A program made the translations under genes and the position numbers. Of a DNA stretch of 64,000 nucleotides, positions 50,423 to 64,000 are shown piece by piece (position 1 is the first letter of the stretch; each line of letters opens with the position of its first letter). The DNA lies in assembly GCA_036381125.1 (NCBI GenBank), contig DASVDK010000177.1, forward strand, positions 6,104 to 70,103, written 5' to 3'. The notes beneath the pieces were generated by a model that saw only the letters and a list, made by a program, of their open reading frames with translations, was not told where the DNA came from and made no database searches. This stretch comes from Thermodesulfobacteriota bacterium (lineage in GTDB: Bacteria > DASVDK01).

Positions 50423-50515
<93 letters not shown>

Positions 50516-50563
50516 TCTGTGGAGGCGGGGTGCCCGGGGCGCCCCGCGTCGCCTGCATGCCCC

Positions 50564-50657
50564 GGAGAGATGTCCGAGTGGTTGAAGGAGCACGCCTGGA
50601 GAGCGTGTAGGCTGGCTCAAACCGGCCTCGAGGGTTCGAATCCCTCTCTCTCCGCCA
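50564..50657 (+). tRNA. tRNA-Ser (anticodon GGA)
   Basis: Same acceptor stem, anticodon loop CUGGAGA, long variable arm, TTCGAATCC T-loop and a 3' CCA. Confidence 0.9.
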
Positions 50658-50858: not shown

Positions 50859-52655
50859 ATGGCCGACACCGGCGCCGCCTACCAGGTCATTGCCCGCAAG
50901 TGGCGTCCACCGACGTTCGACGACCTCGTCGGGCAGCGGCACGTCGCCCGGACGCTGCAGAACGCCATTCGCACCGGCCGTCTCGGCCACGCCTTCCTCT
51001 TCACCGGTCCGCGCGGGGTCGGCAAGACGTCGGCCGCGCGCATCCTGGCGAAGGCGCTCAACTGCACCGCCGCCCCCGGGCCCAACCCGACCCCCTGCGG
51101 CGCCTGCGCCTCGTGCGAGGCGGTCGCGGCCGGCACCGCGGTGGACGTCGTCGAGATCGACGGCGCGTCGAACAACGGCGTCGACGAGGTGCGGGAGCTG
51201 CGGGAGAACGTCAAGTACCTGCCGGCCTCGTCGCGCTTCAAGGTGTACATCATCGACGAGGTCCACATGCTGTCGACGGCGGCCTTCAACGCCCTCCTCA
51301 AGACCCTCGAGGAGCCGCCGGCGCACGTGAAGTTCGTCTTCGCCACGACCGAGGTCCACAAGGTCCCGGCCACCATCCTCTCGCGCTGCCAGCGGTTCGA
51401 CTTCCGCCGCATCCCGCTCGACGAGGTGACCGCGCGCCTCGGGACGATCACCGAGGCCGACGGCGTCAAGGCGGACGTCCGGGCCCTGCGCCTCATCGCG
51501 CGCCAGGGGGAGGGGAGCATGCGCGACGCGCAGAGCCTCCTCGACCAGGTCATCGCCTACGCGGGCAGCGGCGAGGTGACCGAGGCAATGGTGCGCGAGG
51601 TGCTCGGCATCTCGGACCGCGCCGCGGTCCGCGACCTCGCCGACGCGGTCCTCGCGCGCGACGCGGCGGCGGCCCTGGTCGGGCTCGACGCGCTCTACCG
51701 GGGCGGCTCGGACCTCCGGCAGCTCGCGCGGGACCTCCTCGAGCACTTCCGGCACCTGCTCCTCGCCCGCGTCGCCGGCGCGAAGGCGCTCGAGGCGGAG
51801 CTCGGGCCGGACGACGCCGCCGAGGTGGTCCGCCGTGCGGAGGGGCACGGCGTCGACGAGCTGCAGGCGCTCGTCGGCCTCCTCGTCAGGGGCGAGGAGG
51901 AGCTCTCCCGCGCGCCGGCCCCGCGGCTCGCCTTCGAGGTCACGCTGATCCGCATGGCGCGCGTGGCCGAGCTGCGATCGCTCGGCGACATCCTGGCCGA
52001 CCTCGACCGTCTCGGCGCCCGCCTCGGCGGCGGCGACGGGACGGCCGGCTCGGGGAGCGGTCCGGACGGCGGCAAGCGCGGGCCCGGCTCGGCCGGGCCA
52101 GGCCGCGGGGGTGCCGGGCACCCGGCCGAGAGGTCGGGTGCCACGGGCGGAACGCCGCGGAGCAGCGCCGCCCGGGCGTCCACGGGCGAAGGCGGGCCTG
52201 CGCGCGGCGGCCGCGGGGCAGGGGCCGCGGCGCCCATCGAGCTGACGCCCGAGCGGTGGGTCGACGCCGTGCAGTTCGTGGCGTCGCGGAAGCCGGCCCT
52301 CGGCGCGATCCTTGAAGAGGCCGTGCTGCTCGAGGCGGCGCCCGGCCGGGTTTCGCTCGGCATGCCCGAGGGCAACCCCTTCCACGAGGACACGCTTGCC
52401 GACGCGGCGCGTTCCGGGGTCCTCACCGACCTCCTCGCGCAGGCGACCGGCCGGCGCTACGAGGTGCGGGTGGGGCGACTCACGGCCGGCATGTCGCCTC
52501 TCGCGCCGTCGGTGGCCGAGACCGCCGAGGCCAGGGCGAGGCGCGAGCGGGACGCGCTCCTCGCCGAAGCGCTCGCGCACCCGGTGGTGCAGGCCGCGGC
52601 CGAGGTCTTCGAGCTTGCGCCCGACGCCCTCGCCGTGAAGCCGCTCGCGAGCTAG
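50859..52655 (+). CDS. dnaX: DNA polymerase III subunits gamma/tau
   Basis: AAA+ Walker A GPRGVGKTS and zinc module CGACASCE, then a Gly/Pro-rich tau linker. Confidence 0.95.
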   Translation: MADTGAAYQVIARKWRPPTFDDLVGQRHVARTLQNAIRTGRLGHAFLFTGPRGVGKTSAARILAKALNCTAAPGPNPTPCGACASCEAVAAGTAVDVVEIDGASNNGVDEVRELRENVKYLPASSRFKVYIIDEVHMLSTAAFNALLKTLEEPPAHVKFVFATTEVHKVPATILSRCQRFDFRRIPLDEVTARLGTITEADGVKADVRALRLIARQGEGSMRDAQSLLDQVIAYAGSGEVTEAMVREVLGISDRAAVRDLADAVLARDAAAALVGLDALYRGGSDLRQLARDLLEHFRHLLLARVAGAKALEAELGPDDAAEVVRRAEGHGVDELQALVGLLVRGEEELSRAPAPRLAFEVTLIRMARVAELRSLGDILADLDRLGARLGGGDGTAGSGSGPDGGKRGPGSAGPGRGGAGHPAERSGATGGTPRSSAARASTGEGGPARGGRGAGAAAPIELTPERWVDAVQFVASRKPALGAILEEAVLLEAAPGRVSLGMPEGNPFHEDTLADAARSGVLTDLLAQATGRRYEVRVGRLTAGMSPLAPSVAETAEARARRERDALLAEALAHPVVQAAAEVFELAPDALAVKPLAS

Positions 52656-52698
52656 GGTCACGGAGGACGCCGGAGCGGACGCCGGCCGCGAGCCGTTA

Positions 52699-53052
52699 AT
52701 GGAGATTCGCATGAACAAGAACATCGGCCAGCTCCTCAAGCAAGCCCAGAAGATGCAGCAGAAGATGCAGGAGCTGCAGGAGGAGCTGGGGAAGAAGACC
52801 ATCGAGGCGACGGCGGGCGGCGGCATGGTCACGGCCGTGGTCAACGGCAAGCAGGAGCTGGTGTCGCTCAGGATCGAGAAGGAGGTGATCGACCCGAACG
52901 ACGCCGCCATGCTCCAGGACCTCGTGGTCGCCGCCGTCAACGAGGCGATGGGCAAAGCCCGTCAGCTCGTGGCCGACGAGATGGGGAAGCTCACCGGCAG
53001 TCTCGGGCTGCCCGGCCTCGGGGGCCCGGGCGGTGGAGGGTTTCCCTTCTGA
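52699..53052 (+). CDS. ybaB: nucleoid-associated protein YbaB/EbfC
   Basis: …[21 protein letters not shown]…[27 protein letters not shown]…. Confidence 0.9.
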
Positions 53053-53648
53053 TCCCCTACGCCGGCCCCATCGCGGCCCTCATCGCCGAGCTGGCCAAGC
53101 TGCCGGGGGTGGGGGAGAAGACCGCCTCGCGGCTCGCCTTCCACATCCTGCGCGCCCCCCGGGGGGACGCCGACGCGCTGGCGCACGCCATCTTGCGGGT
53201 CAAGGACGAGATCCGGCTCTGCGGCACCTGCTTCAACGTGACCGACGTCGATCCCTGCCGCATCTGCGCGGACCCGAAGCGGGATCCGGCGCTCATCTGC
53301 GTCGTCGAGGAGCCGCCCGACCTCCTGGCCATCGAGCGGACGCGCGAGTACCGGGGGCGCTACCACGTGCTGCACGGCGCCCTCAACCCCATCGAGGGGG
53401 TCGGGCCGGAGGCGCTGCGCATCCGGGAGCTGCTCACGCGCCTCGCCGACGGCGAGGCGCGTGAGGTCATCCTCGCCACGAACCCGAACGTCGAGGGGGA
53501 GGCCACCGCCATCTATCTGTCGAAGCTCCTCAGGCCGCTCGGCGTGACGGTCAGCCGCATCGCCCACGGGGTGCCGATGGGGGGCGAACTGGAGTACGCC
53601 GACGAGGCGACGCTCGCGCGCGCCCTCGAGGGGCGCCGCGCGTTCTGA
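53052..53648 (+). CDS. recR: recombination protein RecR
   Basis: Hh[18 protein letters not shown], zinc finger [16 protein letters not shown] and a Toprim domain. Conserved N-terminal residues ([16 protein letters not shown]) start at 53052, but the first canonical start is the GTG at 53109. Confidence 0.8.
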
Positions 53649-53784
53649 CCCTCGCGCCGAGCGCCGCGACCGACCGACGGCCGCCCGCGGAGTTGCGGGC
53701 GAAGCCGGGGCCGCGGGCCCGGCGGCGGCCGGAAGGTCTCGTTCGGCTTACGGTTTCGTCCCCCTTCCCGCCCCTTCCCGCCGC

Positions 53785-53811
53785 TTGACAACCCCCACGG
53801 CCTGGTATAGT
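53785..53811 (+). promoter_or_regulatory. sigma70-like promoter candidate TTGACA-N15-TATAGT upstream of mglBA
   Basis: Near-consensus hexamers seen directly. It is preceded by a tandem CCCTTCCCGC x2 and followed by a GCGCGCC-N3-GGCGCGC hairpin at 53829-53845. It lies 69 nt before the mglB ATG. Confidence 0.45.
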
Positions 53812-53879
53812 GTCCGCGCCCACTTGCCCGAGAGCGCGCCCCGGGCGCGCCCCGAGTCGGCTCCGGAGAATGATCGCGC

Positions 53880-54368
53880 ATGGCTGGTCCGTCGCTCGTC
53901 ATGTATGAGGGTGAGTTCAAGCAGATCAACGCCCTCATCGAGAAGCTGTGCCGGGAAGCCAACGCCAAGGTCGTCTTTCTGGTCGACAAGAACGGTCAGC
54001 TCATCGCGGCCACCGGCGAGACCAACGGCCTCGACACGACCTCCCTCGCCTCCCTCACCGCCGGCAACATCGCCGCGACCGGCGGCCTCGCGAAGCTGAT
54101 CGGCGAGAAGGAGTTCTCCGTCCTCTTCCACGAGGGCGAGCGCGACCACATCCACATCACGCTCGTCGGCTCGCGCGTGATCCTGGTGGTCATCTTCGAC
54201 CAGCGCTCCTCGCTCGGGCTCGTGCGGCTCAGGGTCAAGAAGGTGGCCGACGAACTCGGGACGATCTTCGGCGCGCTGCTCAAGAAGGTGGAGGCGACCA
54301 ACCACGACGCCGACTCGCCGTTCGCCGAGATCACCGACGACGACATCGACAACCTCTTCCGGGAGTAG
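53880..54368 (+). CDS. mglB: Roadblock/LC7 GTPase-activating protein MglB
   Basis: …VMYEGEFKQINALIEKLCREANAKVVFLVDKNGQLIAATGET…SLASLTAGNIAATGGLAKLIGE… closely matches my recollection of M. xanthus MglB (no alignment run). Confidence 0.95.
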   Translation: MAGPSLVMYEGEFKQINALIEKLCREANAKVVFLVDKNGQLIAATGETNGLDTTSLASLTAGNIAATGGLAKLIGEKEFSVLFHEGERDHIHITLVGSRVILVVIFDQRSSLGLVRLRVKKVADELGTIFGALLKKVEATNHDADSPFAEITDDDIDNLFRE

Positions 54369-54377
54369 GCGGCCGCG

Positions 54378-54970
<593 letters not shown>

Positions 54971-57051: not shown

Positions 57052-58056
57052 ATGGCGACGACCCCCGCCACCAGGTGGAAGCTCGGCCTCTTCGTCGTCG
57101 TCGGGCTCGCGCTGGCGATCGGCGCTCTCTTCTGGCTCGGCGTGAGCGCCGTCGGCCGAGAGACGCTGACGATCGTGACCTACTTCGACGAGTCGGTGCA
57201 GGGTCTGAGCGTCGGCTCGGCGGTCACGTTCCGCGGCGCGCCGATCGGAACCGTCTCGCGCATCAGCGTCGCGCCGGACCGCCGCCGCATCGAGGTCGAG
57301 TGCAGCATCCTGGTGGACAGCCTCGAGCGCCTCGGGCTCGTCGAGCCGAGGGCCCTCTTCGACAGCAAGACGCGGGAGATGCCGGCCGAGCTCCGCACGC
57401 AGCTCACGCTGGCCGGTCTCACGGGCCTCGCGCTCGTGCGGCTCGACTTCTTCGACCCGGAGGCCTACCCTCCGCCGGCGCTCCCGTTCCCGACGCCGCC
57501 CAATTACATCCCGTCGGTGCCGTCGGTGTTCCGGGACATCCGCGAGGCCGTCCTGGTGGCGCTCGCCCGGTTGCCGGACCTCGAGGCACGGCTCACGGGC
57601 GTCCTCGGGAACACCGACGATGTGCTCGCGGAGGTCAAGGGCCTCGTGCGGTTCCTCGGCGCGGAGGACGGCCCGCTCGTCCGGCTCCTCACGCGGTTCG
57701 ACCGGGTCGGCGGCTCGCTGGACCGACAAGTCCAGGAGGCGCACCTCGGCAAGACCGCTGCGTCCGTGCGCGGCGCGGCGGACGCCCTCGCCGAGGCTGC
57801 GCGCAGGCTCGGGGCCGCCAGCGCCGAGTTCGACCGGGCCGCGCAGCGCGTCGCCGACGCCTCCGAGCAGGTCGGCCGCAACGCCGACGGCGTCGCCGCG
57901 GACCTGCGCGGGACGCTCGAGGACCTCGGCGAGTCGGCCGAATCGATCCGCGCGCTCGCCGACTACCTCGAGCGCGATCCCGGCGCGTTGCTGAGGGGCC
58001 GAGCGCCGGGCTCGGCCGGGCCTCCCGGCGGGGTGCGCGACGCGGGGCGGCGATGA
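57052..58056 (+). CDS. MCE/MlaD-family substrate-binding protein
   Basis: N-terminal TM …WKLGLFVVVGLALAIGALFWLG…, an MCE domain and a helical C-terminus. Confidence 0.8.
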   Translation: MATTPATRWKLGLFVVVGLALAIGALFWLGVSAVGRETLTIVTYFDESVQGLSVGSAVTFRGAPIGTVSRISVAPDRRRIEVECSILVDSLERLGLVEPRALFDSKTREMPAELRTQLTLAGLTGLALVRLDFFDPEAYPPPALPFPTPPNYIPSVPSVFRDIREAVLVALARLPDLEARLTGVLGNTDDVLAEVKGLVRFLGAEDGPLVRLLTRFDRVGGSLDRQVQEAHLGKTAASVRGAADALAEAARRLGAASAEFDRAAQRVADASEQVGRNADGVAADLRGTLEDLGESAESIRALADYLERDPGALLRGRAPGSAGPPGGVRDAGRR

Positions 58057-58700
58057 CCCGCCCCGTCCGGCGCCGAGGCGGCCGGTGGGGCCCCGCCGGG
58101 ATCGCGGCGGCGCTGGCGCTGTCCGGCTGCCTCTCGGGGCTCGTGCCGGCCCCGCCCGAGACGCCGCGGTACTTCCGCCCCGATTTCCTCGAGACCGAGC
58201 CGGCCGGTACGAGCGGAGCGGCCGGCGTGGCCGGGCGGGCCGGCCTGCCGCTGCGGCTCCGGGAGGTGCGTGCGAGCGGCAGCCTCGGCGAGCGGATCGC
58301 GTGGCGCGCCTCCGACGTCGAGGTCGGCTTCTACGAGATGCTCAGGTGGACGGACCCGCCGGCGGCCCTGGTCGAGCAGGCGCTCGCGCGCGAGTTCTAC
58401 GAGCGGCGGGGCTTCCAGCGGGCCGTGTCGGGCCAGGCTCCGGCGCTCGCCGTCACGGTGCTTGCCTTCGAGGAGGTCGTGGCCCCGGCCCACGAGGGGC
58501 GCGTCGCCCTGGCCGTGCTCCTGACCGAATCGGGCCGCGCCGTCGTCGACCGCGTCGTCGTCACCCGGCGGCCGGTGCCGGACCACGAGGCCTCGTCGCT
58601 CGCCCGGGCCCTCGGCGACGCCCTTGCCGAAGCGGTCGAGGAGATCGGCGCCCAGGTCGAGGAGGCGCTCCACGCCGCGCGGGCGGGGCCGGCGCCTTGA
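58053..58700 (+). CDS. ABC-transport auxiliary lipoprotein (YmbA/LptM-like)
   Basis: Lipobox ALSGC. Its ATG overlaps the upstream stop (ATGA) and it is last in the mla-like operon. Confidence 0.65.
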   Translation: MTRPVRRRGGRWGPAGIAAALALSGCLSGLVPAPPETPRYFRPDFLETEPAGTSGAAGVAGRAGLPLRLREVRASGSLGERIAWRASDVEVGFYEMLRWTDPPAALVEQALAREFYERRGFQRAVSGQAPALAVTVLAFEEVVAPAHEGRVALAVLLTESGRAVVDRVVVTRRPVPDHEASSLARALGDALAEAVEEIGAQVEEALHAARAGPAP

Positions 58701-58779
58701 CACCGGACGGCCCGGCTCTTACCATGACCTCTCTTCGCGCGCCCAACCCCACGGCGCGCCAGCCGTTATTCCTCGGTAG

Positions 58780-58854
58780 CTCAATGGTGGAGCAAGCGGC
58801 TGTTAACCGCAAGGTTGCAGGTTCGAGTCCTGCCCGAGGAGCCAACTGACCAGG
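58780..58854 (+). tRNA. tRNA-Asn (anticodon GTT)
   Basis: TCCTCGG acceptor, D-arm GCTCAATGGTGGAGC, anticodon loop CUGUUAA, T-arm GGTTCGAGTCC and a 3' CCA. Confidence 0.9.
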
Positions 58855-58859
58855 AGCCC

Positions 58860-59257
58860 CGATCGCGGCGCCGCGATCGGGGCTTCGCGTTTCTCGCGCG
58901 GCGCGGTCGAGGCGCCGAGCCTCAGTCCCGAAGGATCACAAGGTCTCGGCCACGGAAACCGCCCCGCGGACCTCGCTCGGTGCCCCCGCCGCCACGGCTG
59001 CGCCGTCGGCCGGACCACGGCCTCCGGGTCGAGCAGCGCGAGAAGCACGTCGAGGTCGCCGCTGCGCGAGCCGCGAGGGAGGCCCGGACGAATTCCCGCC
59101 GGCGCGTGAGATCGGCATCGGACACCGTGGCCACGCCCTGTACCCGGCGGCGCGCACGGTTGGCGAGCTGCCGTGCCGCCGTCGGGGAGCGTCCCAGCCG
59201 TGCTGGCCAAAGCCGAACGCGCCGGCGGCAGGATCGCCGGGCCGGCGCAGACTGCAA
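58860..59257 (-). pseudogene. remnant of an ECF sigma factor C-terminus with a SnoaL-like extension (5'-truncated and frameshifted)
   Basis: Region-4-like …TAARQLANRARRRVQGV… is followed by …SDADLTRRREFVRASLAARAA, and GDLDVLLALLDPEAVV continues in another frame. No sigma region 2 lies upstream. The track ORF in this frame runs through tRNA-Asn. Confidence 0.35.
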
Positions 59258-59340
59258 CCTCGGGCGGATACTTCGGCCACTTCACCGATCCAGACGGCTG
59301 CCTCTGGAAAGTCGCGAAGGGTTACGGGAAGGAGCCGTTC
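59170..59340 (+). pseudogene. C-terminal fragment of a VOC/glyoxalase-family gene
   Basis: …PAVLAKAERAGGRIAGPAQTATSGGYFGHFTDPDGCLWKVAKGYGKEPF… with no N-terminal half. Confidence 0.3.
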
Positions 59341-60158
59341 GCCGCGGAATGGCCCGTGCCGCCGCTCTGGCGCCGGCCGGCGAGCCCGAGCATCACGGTC
59401 CACCGGGGAGGCTCGATCCCCACGTCGCGGAGCCGGCGCGGCACGGCGCGCGACGTCGAGGTCGCCAGGCGACGGACGTCGACGCCGAGCGCCACGAGGA
59501 GCGGGACGGTGGCGGCGACGGTCCGGAGGTTGAGCCACATGGCCCGCGACACCGCCCGCCGGGCCGCGTGCACCCCGCGCGGGTCGGCCCGGAGGAGGCG
59601 GCGGGCCCACTCGGCGCCGCCGCTCACGTGGCGCCCCTCGTCCGCGTGGATCGCCGCGAGGACCGCTCCGGTGTCCGGGTCCACGAGGTCGCGCAGGGCG
59701 GCATAGAGGTGCAGCGAGAGCGCCTCGATCGTCAGGTGGGTGGTGGTGAGCCGCTCGGCCCAGGTGGGGGCGTCGTCCTGCCAGTCCATGAGCCGGACGA
59801 TGCTGCGGGGCGGCGATGGTAGCCGCGGGTGACGATCCGGCCGGCGGGCGGCCGAGACGGCGCCGCCCGGCGGCATGGGAATCCCCCGCCGCACGAGCCA
59901 GTCCGCCCAGAGAGCGGCGTGCCGCCGCTCGTCGTCCACCTGGCCCGCCAGGAAGCCGATGAAGTCCGCCTCGACCTCCGGCGGCCCGCCGTCGCGGCGC
60001 GCCTCCTCGAGCCACCGCGCCATGGTCTCGGCGCCGCGTGCCTCGCCGTACCAGAACACGCCGCCGGCAAGCCGTACGAGCGCCTCGTCGGCACGGGAGC
60101 GGAGTCGTCCGTCGGGCAGGTCGGTCGAGGCGCGGGGGTGCAGGCGGGACAGCATCAT
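59322..60158 (-). CDS. ferritin-like diiron-carboxylate domain protein with C-terminal TM segment
   Basis: Two ExxH motifs (DDERRH, ADEGRH). The last ~80 nt of its coding end are repeated at 63925..64000. Confidence 0.5.
   Translation of the reverse strand: MMLSRLHPRASTDLPDGRLRSRADEALVRLAGGVFWYGEARGAETMARWLEEARRDGGPPEVEADFIGFLAGQVDDERRHAALWADWLVRRGIPMPPGGAVSAARRPDRHPRLPSPPRSIVRLMDWQDDAPTWAERLTTTHLTIEALSLHLYAALRDLVDPDTGAVLAAIHADEGRHVSGGAEWARRLLRADPRGVHAARRAVSRAMWLNLRTVAATVPLLVALGVDVRRLATSTSRAVPRRLRDVGIEPPRWTVMLGLAGRRQSGGTGHSAANGSFP
59375..59453. repeat. diverged direct repeat, copy 1, of the ferritin-like gene 3' end
   Basis: gagcccgagcatcacggtccaccggggaggctcgatccccacgtcgcggagccggcgcggcacggcgcgc matches 63929..64000 with about 7 mismatches. 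Confidence 0.6.
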
Positions 60159-60307
60159 CCGGGTCCGGTCCTCCAGAGCCTACGTCCGGCGCGAGCCGTC
60201 CCACAAGAGGCGGTGCGTGGCCTGCCGGGCAAGAGAGGGTCGGCCGACGCGGCACGCGGCCGCGCTACGGTGAGCGTGACGAGAACGGCGAGTACCAAGG
60301 AGGCCCT

Positions 60308-60772
60308 ATGCGTGACACATCCGCGATACGGTCGGTGCCGGTCTGGTCCGCCCGGCGCGCCGGCCTTGCGTTCGTTGCCGGGTTCGTGTCGGTCCTGATC
60401 TTCCACCAGCTCATGTTCGCCCTCCTCTACGCCGTCGGGCTGGTCCAGGCGGCCCCCTACAACCTCCAGCCGGTCCCGCCCTTCGGCGTCCCGGCGGTGC
60501 TGTCGGCGGCCTTCTGGGGCGGCGTCTGGGGCATCGTGTTCGCCCTCGTGGAGCCGCGCTTTCCACGCGGCCCGGGCTACTGGGTCGCGGCCGTGCTGTT
60601 CGGCGCCGTGGCCCTGACGGTGGTGTTCTGGTTCGTCGTGGCCCCGCTCAAGGGCTTGCCGGTGGGCGGCGGCTGGCGGGCGGCGGCGTGGGTGCCGGGG
60701 CTGCTGGTCAACGGCGCCTGGGGGCTCGGCACCGCCCTGCTCCTGCGGGCGTTCGCCCGGCCTGCTCGCTGA
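60308..60772 (+). CDS. hypothetical membrane protein (154 aa, 4 TM)
   Basis: MRDTSAIRSVPVWSARRAGLAFVAGFVSVLIFHQL…, with an aggagg SD. Confidence 0.5.
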   Translation: MRDTSAIRSVPVWSARRAGLAFVAGFVSVLIFHQLMFALLYAVGLVQAAPYNLQPVPPFGVPAVLSAAFWGGVWGIVFALVEPRFPRGPGYWVAAVLFGAVALTVVFWFVVAPLKGLPVGGGWRAAAWVPGLLVNGAWGLGTALLLRAFARPAR

Positions 60773-61451
60773 CGCGGGCGGCCGCCCCGGCGCACGGTCG
60801 CCAGGGGGAGCCGGCGAGGCGCGCCGCCGTGCCGTCGAGGGCGTCGAGGAGCCGGTCTACCACCCAGGGGCGGCCGGTGGCTGTTGGTCTTCCAGGCCGC
60901 CGGCCTGCGCGCCTGCAATCGGCTCGTCCCGGTCCGGTACCGGCATCGGTTTGCGGGTGAGCCGGCCGACCTGCCGCCCGGGCCCCCGACCGCGGTCCCC
61001 TGGCCAGCGGGGCTTTCGGCTCGAGCCACCTCGTACGCGCATCCTCGCCGCCGACGACGCGACCGGACTCGGCCATCCGCTTTCGCATTCTTGCGGAATA
61101 GTACGGACGCGTGCAGCCCACCCATCCCATGCGGCCGTCACAACACCGAGGCGCCCACGACCACACGCTAGACCCGCCCAACGGGCCTGTCGCCTGGTGG
61201 CAGTACCGCGAGAACGGCGTAGTGACGTCGGTGGGGATGTGCTGCCCTTCGATGGCCCGGAGTCCGGAGATTGCGTGACAGCTCCTCGAGCAGCACAGGC
61301 CCAGTCCTCTGAGGGCGCCCCGATAGCACCATGATAAGGGAGCTGGCGGCCCCACGCCTGGCGGCGTGGCGGCCGCCGGCGTGGACGTGGCGCCGGCAGT
61401 GGTCCAGGCCGACGGCCAACCCGTGAGCGCGCGCGAGGAAGGACACGCACG

Positions 61452-62207
61452 ATGAAGATCGTCGTTGTCGGCGGCACCGGCCTGATCGGCTCGAAGACCG
61501 TCGCCATTCTGCGCCAGGGCGGCCACGAGGTCGTCGCCGCCTCGCCCGGTACCGGCGTCAACACCATCACCGGCAAAGGCCTCGAGGAGGCCATGGCCGG
61601 CACGCAGGTGGTGATCGACCTCGCCAATTCGCCTTCGTCCGAGGACAGGGCGGTGCTGGAATTCTTCGAGACCTCCGGCCGCAATCTTCTCGCGGCGGAG
61701 GCCGCAGCCGGCGTCCGGCACCATGTCGCGCTCTCCATCGTCGGAACCGACCGGATGCCCGACAATGGCTATTTCCGCGCCAAGGTCGCCCAGGAGAAAC
61801 TGATCGAGGGGTCGGGTATCCCCTACACCATCATCCGCTCGACCCAGTTCCTGGAGTTCCTCGGCAACATCGCCGCTTCGGCTACGGATGGAAACACGGT
61901 CAGGCTTTCGCCCGGCCTGTTCCAGCCTATCGCAGCGGACGACGTTGCCGCCATCGTCGCCGATGTGGCGCTCGCGGCGCCGCGAAACGGGATCGTCGAG
62001 ATCGCCGGCCCGGAACGAGCACCGTTGAACGAGATCGTCGCCCGCTATCTGAAGGCGCTCGGCGACCCGCGCGTCGTCGTGAGCGGCCCCGAGGCCCGAT
62101 ACTTCGGCGGCCGGGTCGAGGAGCGCTCGCTCGTGCCGCTGGGCGAAGCGCACCTCGGCCGCATCGGTCTCGACGAATGGCTCCGCCGCCCACAGGCACG
62201 AGCCTGA
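61452..62207 (+). CDS. NAD(P)H-binding SDR-family oxidoreductase (NmrA/YbjT-like)
   Basis: MKIVVVGGTGLIGSK… Rossmann fold. It shows lower GC and atypical codons (GTT, ATT, AAT, CTT) relative to the rest of the window. Confidence 0.8.
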   Translation: MKIVVVGGTGLIGSKTVAILRQGGHEVVAASPGTGVNTITGKGLEEAMAGTQVVIDLANSPSSEDRAVLEFFETSGRNLLAAEAAAGVRHHVALSIVGTDRMPDNGYFRAKVAQEKLIEGSGIPYTIIRSTQFLEFLGNIAASATDGNTVRLSPGLFQPIAADDVAAIVADVALAAPRNGIVEIAGPERAPLNEIVARYLKALGDPRVVVSGPEARYFGGRVEERSLVPLGEAHLGRIGLDEWLRRPQARA

Positions 62208-62239
62208 TCCTGCATCCGCCAACCGAAGGAGAGGACTCC

Positions 62240-62656
62240 ATGAAACGCGCCCTCTGTGCGCTGCTTGTCGCCGCCCTGCCGCTCGGCAGCGTCCTCGCCG
62301 CCGAACCGAAGTCGAAGAACGCCAAGGTGACCCTCGTCTACCAGCACGAGCTGCCGAACGTTCCCGGCAAGAGCATCAAGGGCGTGCTCGTCGAATACGG
62401 CCCGGGCGGGTACTCGCCTGCCCACACGCATGCCAGATCCGCCTTCATCTACGCGACCGTGCTCGAGGGGGCGATCCGCAGTCAGGTCAACGACGGACCG
62501 GTGACGACCTACCGGGCGGGCCAGAGCTGGTCCGAACTGCCCGGCGACCGCCACCGCGTCAGCGCCAACGCCAGCGAGACGAAGCCGGCCAGGCTCCTCG
62601 CGGTGTTCGTGGTGGACACGAACGAGACGGAACTGACGATCCCATCCGGGACCTGA
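62240..62656 (+). CDS. secreted cupin-domain protein
   Basis: Signal peptide MKRALCALLVAALPLGSVLAA and cupin motif …GPGGYSPAHTHARSAFIYATVLEG…. SD gaaggagagg. Same atypical composition as the preceding SDR gene. Confidence 0.7.
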   Translation: MKRALCALLVAALPLGSVLAAEPKSKNAKVTLVYQHELPNVPGKSIKGVLVEYGPGGYSPAHTHARSAFIYATVLEGAIRSQVNDGPVTTYRAGQSWSELPGDRHRVSANASETKPARLLAVFVVDTNETELTIPSGT

Positions 62657-62861
62657 CGTCCTGGCGGTGCAGCAAGGTGCCAGGATGACGACGGACACGG
62701 TGACAGTCGAGGAGGCCGGGCGCTGTCAGATGACCGGGCGAGACCGCCCGGGCTCTCTTGTTCCGCCGACATGCAGGTAGAACGGCGCCGACCTCGTCGT
62801 GCGCCTGCCCAATCCGGCCGTAACGAGGAGGTCGGCGATGCCATTGCACTGGGCGTGAGTT

Positions 62862-63504
62862 TCTGAGCGGGGTCGCCGATCGGTTCGGCCTGTGGGGCCC
62901 GGCAGGCGCCGTGAACGTTGCCTGGGGCGACTTCCAGCACTTCACCGCGTACACCGCTCGACTGAACCCATGGGCGCCGACGCCGGCAGCGCCGGCGCTG
63001 GCCTGGGCCGCCACCGTCGCCGAACTCGTCCTCGGCGTTGCCCTCATCCTGGGGTTCTTCACCCGGTGGTCGGCGCTTCTGAGCGGAGTCCTCCTGCTCC
63101 TGTTCGCCTTCGGGATGACCGTCGGCACCGGGCTCAAGTCCGCTCTGGGCGCTTCTGTCTTCTCTGCGGCGGCCGCGGGATTCGCGCTCGCAGTTCTGGG
63201 GCCGGGGCTCTGGACCGCGGACGGCCGGCTCGGGGATCGCCACGAGGTCGCGCGAGCACCCGGCGGCGCGGTACCCCTCGGCCCTCCCGAGCGTCCCCGG
63301 CGATCCTCGGTGGTCTCGATCCGGGAGCGCGCCGCGGTCACCCGCGCCCGCGCGCTCGGCGCGGCGGCTCCTCGACCAGTCCACGCAGACGCTCGATCGC
63401 GCGATCCCAGCCTGCGGAGATCGCATCGAGGAACGCCCGCGCCTCGTCGAGTCGGCGCGCATCGAGCGCGTAGAGCACCTCCCGGCCGCGCCTCTCGTGC
63501 GTGA
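62862..63504 (+). pseudogene. DoxX-family membrane protein remnant (N-terminal half missing)
   Basis: The frame reads FLSGVADRFGLWGPAGAVNVAWGDFQHFTAYTARLNPWAP…LILGFFTRWSALLSGVLLLLFAFGMTVGTG, which is only the C-terminal half of the family. There is no plausible start, and the ORF over-runs into arsR by about 165 nt. Confidence 0.45.
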
Positions 63505-63691
63505 CCAGGCCGGCAGCCTCGAGCACCTGCAGGTGCTTCACGATCGCCTGTCGGCTGACCTTCGCCCCGTCGGAGAGCGAGGTGGCCGACAGGGCTCCGT
63601 CGGCCCTCAGCCTGGTCACCACCGAGAGCCTCGTGCCGTCGCCGAGCGCGAAGAACACGTCGGCGATCGTCTGCTCAGCTCCCCTCGACAT
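63338..63691 (-). CDS. ArsR/SmtB-family transcriptional regulator
   Basis: wHTH …ADVFFALGDGTRLSVVTRLRADGALSATSLSDGAKVSRQAIVKHLQVLEAAGLV…. Confidence 0.8.
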   Translation of the reverse strand: MSRGAEQTIADVFFALGDGTRLSVVTRLRADGALSATSLSDGAKVSRQAIVKHLQVLEAAGLVTHERRGREVLYALDARRLDEARAFLDAISAGWDRAIERLRGLVEEPPRRARGRG

Positions 63692-63899
63692 ACCTCTTGA
63701 CGTTCTCCGCCTGCCCGGCCCAGCCCCCCTCGTTCATGCGGAAGGCCCGCTCACGTCGGTGCGGCGGCACCTTGTCGAATCCGGACTCCACGATCGTGAG
63801 GAGCGTCCCCTCGGCGACCGCCTCGAGGCGGAACTCGACGAGCGTCGATGATGGCGGCTTCGTCGTAGCAGGATGCCAGGGGGTCGGGACTATGTGCAA
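63675..63899 (-). pseudogene. C-terminal fragment of an SRPBCC (Aha1/activator of Hsp90 ATPase-like) domain protein
   Basis: …STLVEFRLEAVAEGTLLTIVESGFDKVP…MNEGGWAGQAENVKRYVEG is the usual C-terminus of ArsR-associated SRPBCC proteins. Only 74 aa are present. Confidence 0.45.
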
Positions 63900-63900
63900 C

Positions 63901-64000
63901 TCATTTGTTGCATGTCTCGGAGGCGGCCGCGAGCCCGAGCGTCACGGTCCATCGGGGCGGCTCGATCCCCACGTCGCGGAGCCGCCGCGGCACGGCGCGC
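63901..64000 (-). CDS. second ferritin-like paralog (partial; only the C-terminus lies inside the window)
   Basis: The minus frame reads …RAVPRRLRDVGIEPPRWTVTLGLAAASETCNK followed by a stop. This parallels …RAVPRRLRDVGIEPPRWTVMLGLAG… of 59322..60158. Confidence 0.45.
   Translation of the reverse strand, partial: RAVPRRLRDVGIEPPRWTVTLGLAAASETCNK
63925..64000. repeat. diverged direct repeat, copy 2
   Basis: gagcccgagcgtcacggtccatcggggcggctcgatccccacgtcgcggagccgccgcggcacggcgcgc. Confidence 0.6.

Follow-up and report, generated by a model that had tools for sequence, protein, structure and literature searches.

Here, we examine a 64,000-nucleotide stretch of DNA (hereafter, the window) from a Thermodesulfobacteriota bacterium (GTDB lineage DASVDK01; GenBank assembly GCA_036381125.1, contig DASVDK010000177.1, positions 6,104 to 70,103), at the right-hand end of which ~5.2 kb of abnormal sequence, from 58845 to ~64100, follows directly on a tRNA-Asn gene. 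We think it probable that this region is a decayed and immobile variable islet adjacent to the tRNA, into which a two-gene unit encoding a short-chain dehydrogenase/reductase (SDR) and a cupin was recently acquired by horizontal transfer. An earlier note, made from the sequence alone, had called the region the scar of repeated insertion and deletion at a tRNA hotspot. The gene fragments and a break in collinearity at the tRNA bear this out, while integrase-mediated insertion is something that we infer rather than observe.

The window has a GC content of 73.1%, and the host lineage is a rare, GC-rich, and very sparsely sampled soil bacterium. For the PqiC-like lipoprotein encoded just upstream of the tRNA, a search of 5.8 billion proteins gave 14 homologues (its own entry, one at 87% identity, one at 62%, and all others at ≤41%). 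Similarly, in a scan of 185,579 species genomes the best relatives of the upstream MlaD-like gene reach only 39-40% identity, and no tRNA was found near them.

The SDR and cupin pair

The tRNA, the pair, and the hairpins beside them are as follows (positions are those of the window).

58770-58844, plus strand: tRNA-Asn (GTT) (ARAGORN; Rfam tRNA, 66.7 bits)
58853-58886, plus strand: perfect GC-rich terminator-like hairpin just 3' of tRNA-Asn (RNA fold -36.2 kcal/mol, z -4.67)
61452-62207, plus strand: NmrA-like atypical SDR, 251 aa, intact (Pfam NAD_binding_10 and NmrA)
62237-62656, plus strand: Cupin_2 protein, 139 aa, intact, with an N-terminal signal-peptide-like segment (PF07883, 51.6 bits against a cut-off of 27.2)
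62734-62751, plus strand: terminator-like hairpin with a T-rich tail, 3' of the cupin gene (consensus scan; weak, with 2 sites against 1.2 expected)

The SDR has thousands of relatives among database proteins, the best 119 non-self matches being 87-92% identical and carrying labels that include Binatia, Methylomirabilota, and Alphaproteobacteria. When metagenomes were scanned with the cupin, at least 464 relatives were found, the best 80 of them at 83-90% amino acid identity. At the DNA level, more than 60 of those best 80 soil-metagenome loci match the window pair at 84-92%; the SDR gene is 90-92% identical to contigs L004-L007, with the match starting at 61449-61452, and the pair has at least 90% identity with Binatia-binned contigs. 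PLSDB contains 375 plasmid or chromid records with both genes, at 70-86% nucleotide identity, and in these only the two open reading frames (ORFs) match. The best matches among cultured records are alpha- and beta-proteobacterial, as the earlier note had predicted: Rhodovastum at 85.6%, Paraburkholderia at ~80%, Azospirillum at 75%, and Rhizobium/Sinorhizobium/Agrobacterium at ~70%. The pair on Rhodovastum atsumiense plasmid RHOApc (WP_150045207.1 / WP_150045206.1) has the gene order of the window copy, proteins of the same lengths (251 and 139 aa), and a ~30-nt spacer; the window copy differs in lying in another phylum and in its higher GC. GC in the flanks of the soil loci is 60-66%, and, where tested, these flanks resemble proteobacterial replicons.

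We regard the pair as clearly foreign, and as the probable product of a recent horizontal acquisition from an alpha/beta-proteobacterial gene pool, because closely similar copies abound in soil and occur in Proteobacteria while the native neighbours have 3-14 homologues in 5.8 billion proteins. As far as sequence comparison goes, it is homology, and not composition, that decides this origin. The view that the pair is native, vertically inherited, and very strongly conserved is effectively refuted. Both ORFs are intact, as that view would have it, with GC content at third codon positions (GC3) of 0.85-0.90, near the host value, and codon usage within 2 standard deviations. However, it would have to explain how a lineage whose own genes reach at most 41% amino acid identity outside two or three relatives carries a pair with ≥90% nucleotide identity to Binatia-binned contigs and 87-92% amino acid identity to Methylomirabilota- and Alphaproteobacteria-labelled proteins, at a synonymous divergence (dS) of only 0.10-0.14 and with flanks that share nothing with any other locus.

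The limits of this homology are sharp. The DNA match to the soil loci begins at 61448-61452 (the ATG is at 61452) or at a contig end, and it finishes at 62643-62664, mostly at 62653-62662, around the stop codon at 62654-62656. Beyond the two genes, no other part of 58700-64000 matches any soil locus as DNA or protein, and no homologue of the neighbouring DoxX, ArsR, AHSA1, or ferritin-like genes lies beside the SDR or cupin in the other loci.

How recent the acquisition may be can be judged from a consensus built from 27 full-length soil copies, to which the window copy adds a 28th. The window pair differs from it at 79 of 1205 sites. The SDR has a dS of 0.14 and a ratio of nonsynonymous to synonymous divergence (dN/dS) of 0.33; for the cupin, the two values are 0.10 and 0.58. 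Of the 29 positions of the SDR-cupin spacer, 26 are conserved. Relative to the consensus, the window copy carries 41 AT-to-GC and 20 GC-to-AT substitutions, against 592 and 895 in the other copies pooled (Fisher p 3e-5), and its GC is the highest of the 28. The copy would thus appear to be drifting toward the composition of its host, the amelioration signature expected at 73% GC.

Most soil copies (L008-L087) share two further elements, neither of which the window copy has: a ~60-nt leader upstream of the SDR (…TTGCATTCGAACCCATTTAAGGGTCTCCAGTCATCGACAAGGGAGGGTAAACC-ATG) and a ~45-nt trailer that forms a small hairpin (TGA-GGTTTAATACCTTTCGTGCGGAGATATTGCGTCGCGAGAAAATGCGGGACGCC). The hexamers directly flanking the ORFs in the soil copies, TAAACC and GGTTTA, are inverted repeats of each other. 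Searches of the window with nhmmer profiles found no trace of the consensus leader or trailer. Co-transferred flanks should still be recognisable, given the low dS and the conserved spacer, and so the untraceable leader and trailer imply that the donor DNA is limited to the ORFs and their spacer. Such tight edges would fit deletion trimming back to the limits of function.

Equally tight junctions occur at other SDR-cupin loci, whose surroundings are diverse: clustering sorts 32 upstream flanks into 20 groups and 62 downstream flanks into 45, and mobile-element genes are often near the pair in soil. This raises the more speculative proposal that the pair is a self-contained "nomadic" operon of ~1.2-1.3 kb (the ORFs with the ~60-nt leader and ~45-nt trailer) that moves between soil phyla, with dozens of unrelated landing sites, near-ORF-precise boundaries, and no recognisable transposase, integrase, attC, or terminal repeat. 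We consider this doubtful; were it true, it would call for an unrecognised capture mechanism or for unusually strong selection for a redox or detoxification function. Beyond TAAACC/GGTTTA, no convincing terminal inverted repeat was seen around the module. The leader and trailer were considered as the ends of a repeated mobile element and rejected as such, as they occur only beside the module.

Like integron gene cassettes, the pair is compact, promoter-poor, tightly bounded, and found in many contexts; unlike them, it comprises two genes preceded by a leader of their own, lacks attC, and has no integron integrase nearby. We rejected a cassette on the grounds that attC is absent, that homology to 60+ loci ends within a few nucleotides of the stop codon (0-4 nt past it), and that the ~45-nt trailer is module-specific and not of attC type.

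Alleles of the two genes are shuffled across L004-L007, L009, L016, L022, L024, L026, and L084. Some of these contigs carry a 90%-identical SDR beside a cupin of only 42% identity or beside a toxin gene, and in others a diverged SDR precedes a ~90%-identical cupin. Such shuffling suggests that recombination at the SDR-cupin spacer is frequent.

The SDR scores 44.7 bits with PF13460 (cut-off 27.2) and 36 bits with PF05368 (cut-off 27), which places it in the NmrA-like family, and an N-terminal glycine-rich NAD(P)-binding motif, VVGGTGLIG, can be read in its translation. The cupin sequence contains HTH...E and PGDRHRVSAN, which we take to be the two metal-binding motifs that complete the case for a Cupin_2 protein. 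In the PDB, the SDR only weakly matches 5F5L/5F5N and the cupin has no match. Because the ORFs are intact, with a ribosome-binding site (GAGGAAGGA) 8 nt upstream of the ATG and a hairpin downstream, the unit may still be expressed. Widely plasmid-borne, it ranks in soil metagenomes among the more promiscuous of small gene units and reaches even a lineage with almost no database relatives, which makes it a reasonable candidate for functional study.

Anatomy of the region and the break at tRNA-Asn

From the end of the tRNA, the region holds five intact genes (ferritin-like, membrane protein, SDR, cupin, and ArsR) and five gene fragments (a SigJ-type extracytoplasmic function [ECF] sigma factor, a glyoxalase C-terminus, an N-truncated DoxX, an AHSA1/SRPBCC C-terminus, and a ferritin-like 3' piece), as established from GC-phase plots, domain scans, and pairwise comparisons. 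Host-type coding periodicity is present in 40% of its 150-nt windows, against 83% in the rest of the 64 kb, and all other 5.25-kb stretches reach 64% or more. The degraded mosaic that had been described downstream of the tRNA is, therefore, real. Automatic annotation would probably call the five pseudogenes flagged here short "hypothetical" or truncated proteins.

The closest view of the corresponding site comes from L093, a 909-bp contig from another sample (SRR25508621) with 89% nucleotide identity to the window over 846 nt, including the PqiC gene. L093 is identical to the window across the entire tRNA to its CCA end (58844), is unrelated from the first base beyond, and has a different hairpin where the window has that at 58853-58886. 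Its 63-nt post-tRNA tail, which was sought to define the empty site, has no match in the window or its downstream extension. A more distant relative (L092, 62% amino acid identity) keeps the order MlaE-MlaF-MlaD-PqiC, with no tRNA after PqiC and other genes downstream, and homologues of the ferritin-like gene on three other contigs lie in unrelated contexts. Gene order 3' of the tRNA is, therefore, not conserved among these relatives, where conservation would have spoken against the earlier note, and the break in L093 exactly at the tRNA end supports a tRNA-linked variable site.

In other bacteria, tRNA-Asn is a well-known target for integration (PMC6202445), with linked genomic islands and integrative and conjugative elements (ICEs) such as those of the Yersinia high-pathogenicity island (HPI)/ICEKp family (PMC6202445, PMC13023037). 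Like that family, the window region lies directly 3' of tRNA-Asn, has content that varies from the tRNA end (as judged from the 63-nt flank of one relative), and carries cargo that is in part of atypical composition. Unlike it, the region has no P4-like integrase, flanking direct repeats, or conjugation or excision genes, measures only ~5 kb, consists mostly of gene fragments, and belongs to an unrelated, uncultured lineage.

Composition, decay, and assembly integrity

On the islet reading, DNA would have been gained and then partly lost in several rounds at the 3' end of tRNA-Asn to give the present region. The losses would have clipped the SigJ-type sigma, glyoxalase, DoxX, and AHSA1 genes as well as the second ferritin-like copy, and the latest recognisable gain would be the SDR-cupin operon, drawn from the alpha/beta-proteobacterial pool. 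Of the donor DNA only the two ORFs and the spacer would survive, in a copy that may have begun its drift toward the higher GC of the host. The order and number of these events are our reconstruction, as is entry through an integrase. As a kind of feature this is already known, and the region would be a routine example of a tRNA-adjacent site that gathers foreign DNA and then erodes it.

It is important to set out what weighs against this reading. No recombinase domain was found in any ORF or six-frame piece of the region by Pfam, PHROG, or protein searches (the earlier note had likewise stated that no integrase survives), nor was any transposase remnant found there. A search that allowed up to 6 mismatches in 32 nt, over the whole window and on to 65291, gave no direct repeat of the tRNA 3' end such as an attachment (att) site would leave. 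The region thus lacks two defining features of an integrase-type island, the integrase and the att repeat, and for this reason insertion by an integrase at the tRNA can only be inferred. The post-tRNA comparison rests on 63 nt of one relative, and no complete related genome exists. The ferritin-like and membrane protein genes look native, so that the region is not one foreign block. The codon-usage z-scores of the pair (SDR -1.8, cupin -1.1) are only mildly deviant taken alone, and all such scores are approximate, as the host reference gene set was picked by a GC3 threshold. Lastly, 61497-63235 lies outside all independent contigs, just where a chimera could form.

The composition itself deserves care. 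The earlier note had described the pair as lower in GC with non-native codon choice. The first part stands, with GC of 0.68 against 0.73 ± 0.035 for host genes and GC3 of 0.85 (SDR) and 0.90 (cupin) against 0.94 ± 0.026. The second holds only modestly, and the deviation is not limited to the pair: atypical GC3 of 0.85-0.90 spans the whole block 61452-63899, with DoxX, ArsR, and AHSA1 deviating equally or more strongly, whereas 59322-60772, also within the region, is host-like. Wholly typical host codon usage, which would have counted against a foreign pair, was not what we found.

Could the region simply reflect general gene decay in a low-constraint stretch, through illegitimate recombination and deletions, with the tRNA nearby by chance? 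The missing integrase and att repeat, the native-looking genes, and the absence of any tRNA after PqiC in L092 would all agree with this. We nonetheless judge it unlikely, as L093 diverges exactly from the base after the tRNA CCA, terminator hairpin included, and as tRNA-Asn serves as an integration site elsewhere (PMC6202445).

A further possibility is metagenome mis-assembly, in which two unrelated genomes were joined through a shared SDR-cupin pair and the mosaic is a chimeric contig. The source is a contig of a metagenome-assembled genome, the module recurs in a great many soil genomes, same-run contigs in the Logan assemblies break at 61497, at 63235, and in the tRNA, and an exact-match look-up found no full SDR on record in the same-run Logan assembly. 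However, Logan contigs of this run (SRR25158368) reproduce exactly 57932-58842, 58817-61497, and 63235-65291. The second of these (L096) joins the non-coding stretch at 60773-61451 to the first 45 nt of the SDR, so that the left junction is independently reproduced. DNA of the rare lineage lies on both sides of the gap, as a full ferritin-like gene on the left and a ferritin-like 3' fragment (91-94% identity) on the right; the right side runs on into a PMT_2 gene of host composition (GC3 0.93), and the GC-enriching substitutions of the window copy fit residence in a 73% GC host. We hold a chimera to be distinctly improbable.

In addition, the ends of the same-run contigs fall inside the tRNA (58817-58842), 45 nt into the SDR (61497), and exactly at the end of the DoxX homology (63235), and at each of the three there may be strain heterogeneity or cross-genome repeats.

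Genes and fragments on either side of the pair

Between the tRNA and the pair, we recognise the following.

58936-59200, minus strand: internal fragment of a SigJ-type ECF sigma factor gene (end of region 4 and start of the SnoaL-like domain)
59197-59316, plus strand: glyoxalase/VOC C-terminal fragment, ~38 aa (Pfam PF00903 positions 83-120 of 121, E 4.9e-4)
59322-60158, minus strand: ferritin-like gene, intact, with a weak Pfam DUF455 match (GC3 0.94, codon z -0.40)
60305-60772, plus strand: orphan membrane protein ORF (GC3 0.94, strong host-type codon periodicity)
60773-61451, no strand: 679-bp stretch without recognisable gene, RNA, or repeat

Two or more frameshifts interrupt the sigma fragment, which has lost both its ends, and no single frame has a Pfam match. 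An 88-aa peptide rebuilt from three frames matches positions 141-225 of 293 in the NCBIfam SigJ model NF007214 (E 1.4e-11), in agreement with the ECF-sigma/SnoaL remnant reported before. Its 44 bits fall far below the SigJ cut-off of 271, and regions 2 and 4 and the SnoaL-like domain are not present complete in one frame. The glyoxalase fragment, also reported before, is opposed to it. Because the clipped 5' ends of the two abut, as read from the sequence at the junction, one deletion across a divergent sigma/glyoxalase gene pair would account for both truncations.

The ferritin-like gene and the membrane protein gene were correctly described as such, both being intact. The ferritin-like gene has a 15-codon C-terminal extension, where its homologues stop at ...LAGR*. 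Its family has 3 homologues in 5.8 billion proteins (100, 72, and 71% identity), all from Logan assemblies, and so far as these sequences go it appears almost confined to the host lineage. The membrane ORF has no Pfam or NCBIfam family, and no homologue of it lies beside the ferritin-like genes of the relatives.

The ~680 bp previously noted as having no credible ORFs proved equally empty here. Across 60773-61451 there is no codon periodicity, no Rfam match, no plasmid DNA match, and no Pfam match at E≤5 in eight six-frame pieces; PHROG gave no meaningful match (one of 19 residues is regarded as noise), and a search of 1.84 billion protein representatives with one frame yielded only antisense matches to the SDR 5' end. 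An integrase, a transposase, and a riboswitch were each rejected for this stretch, within the reach of those Rfam, plasmid, Pfam, PHROG, and protein searches.

To the right of the pair are the following.

62851-63240, plus strand: DoxX-family membrane protein gene without its N-terminus (Pfam DoxX profile positions 22-81 of 85)
63338-63691, minus strand: ArsR/SmtB-family regulator, intact (NCBIfam NF033788, 68.6 bits against a cut-off of 55)
63675-63899, minus strand: AHSA1/SRPBCC C-terminal fragment, 74 aa, 5' truncated (Pfam AHSA1 positions 61-125 of 125)
63901-64000 and on to ~64047 past the window end, minus strand: 3' fragment of a second ferritin-like gene (~42 homologous codons)

DoxX had been said to lack its 5' half exactly where the pair ends, which needs correction on both counts. 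Its homology starts at ~62851-62857, ~195 bp past the cupin stop, and 16 N-terminal residues are absent relative to a homologue, or 34 if counted from the first usable start at 62911. In a BLASTP alignment with a Hymenobacter DoxX, query residue 10 pairs with subject residue 17. The homology is preceded by an in-frame stop at 62821-62823, and the sequence does not amount to a full-length four-helix protein with a start codon. It is probably a pseudogene. Its GC3 is 0.85 and its codon z -3.3.

The ArsR and 5'-truncated SRPBCC genes are as they had been described, ArsR scoring as a member of its family. As on the Ensifer adhaerens chromid pCTYH.Ch1_1, the AHSA1 stop overlaps the ArsR start in the same order, at ~65% amino acid identity (65% for ArsR). 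Unlike the chromid gene, whose full-length AHSA1 counterpart is 197 aa as an ORF, the window AHSA1 keeps only its last 74 residues. At the junction of AHSA1 with the ferritin-like fragment lies an AT-rich inverted repeat, TGCAAC-N6-GTTGCA (63884-63912), unusual in a 73% GC background.

The second ferritin-like paralog of the earlier note is reduced to a 3' fragment. It gives a direct repeat within the window (59380-59451 / 63929-64000, 94% identity), and a 100%-identical contig from the independent assembly of the same run (L100), which extends 1291 nt past the window end, shows that the piece and the first ferritin-like gene have only ~125 nt (91%) in common. A tandem duplication spanning both copies could not be established from so short a shared stretch. 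On the same contig, the PMT_2 glycosyltransferase gene starts at 64157 (Pfam E 1.2e-14).

Elsewhere in the window, tRNA-Ser genes with CGA and GGA anticodons are adjacent at 50423-50657, and stretches of lower GC (0.62-0.66) follow within a few kilobases, at 52600-54800. These surroundings may be another variable region.

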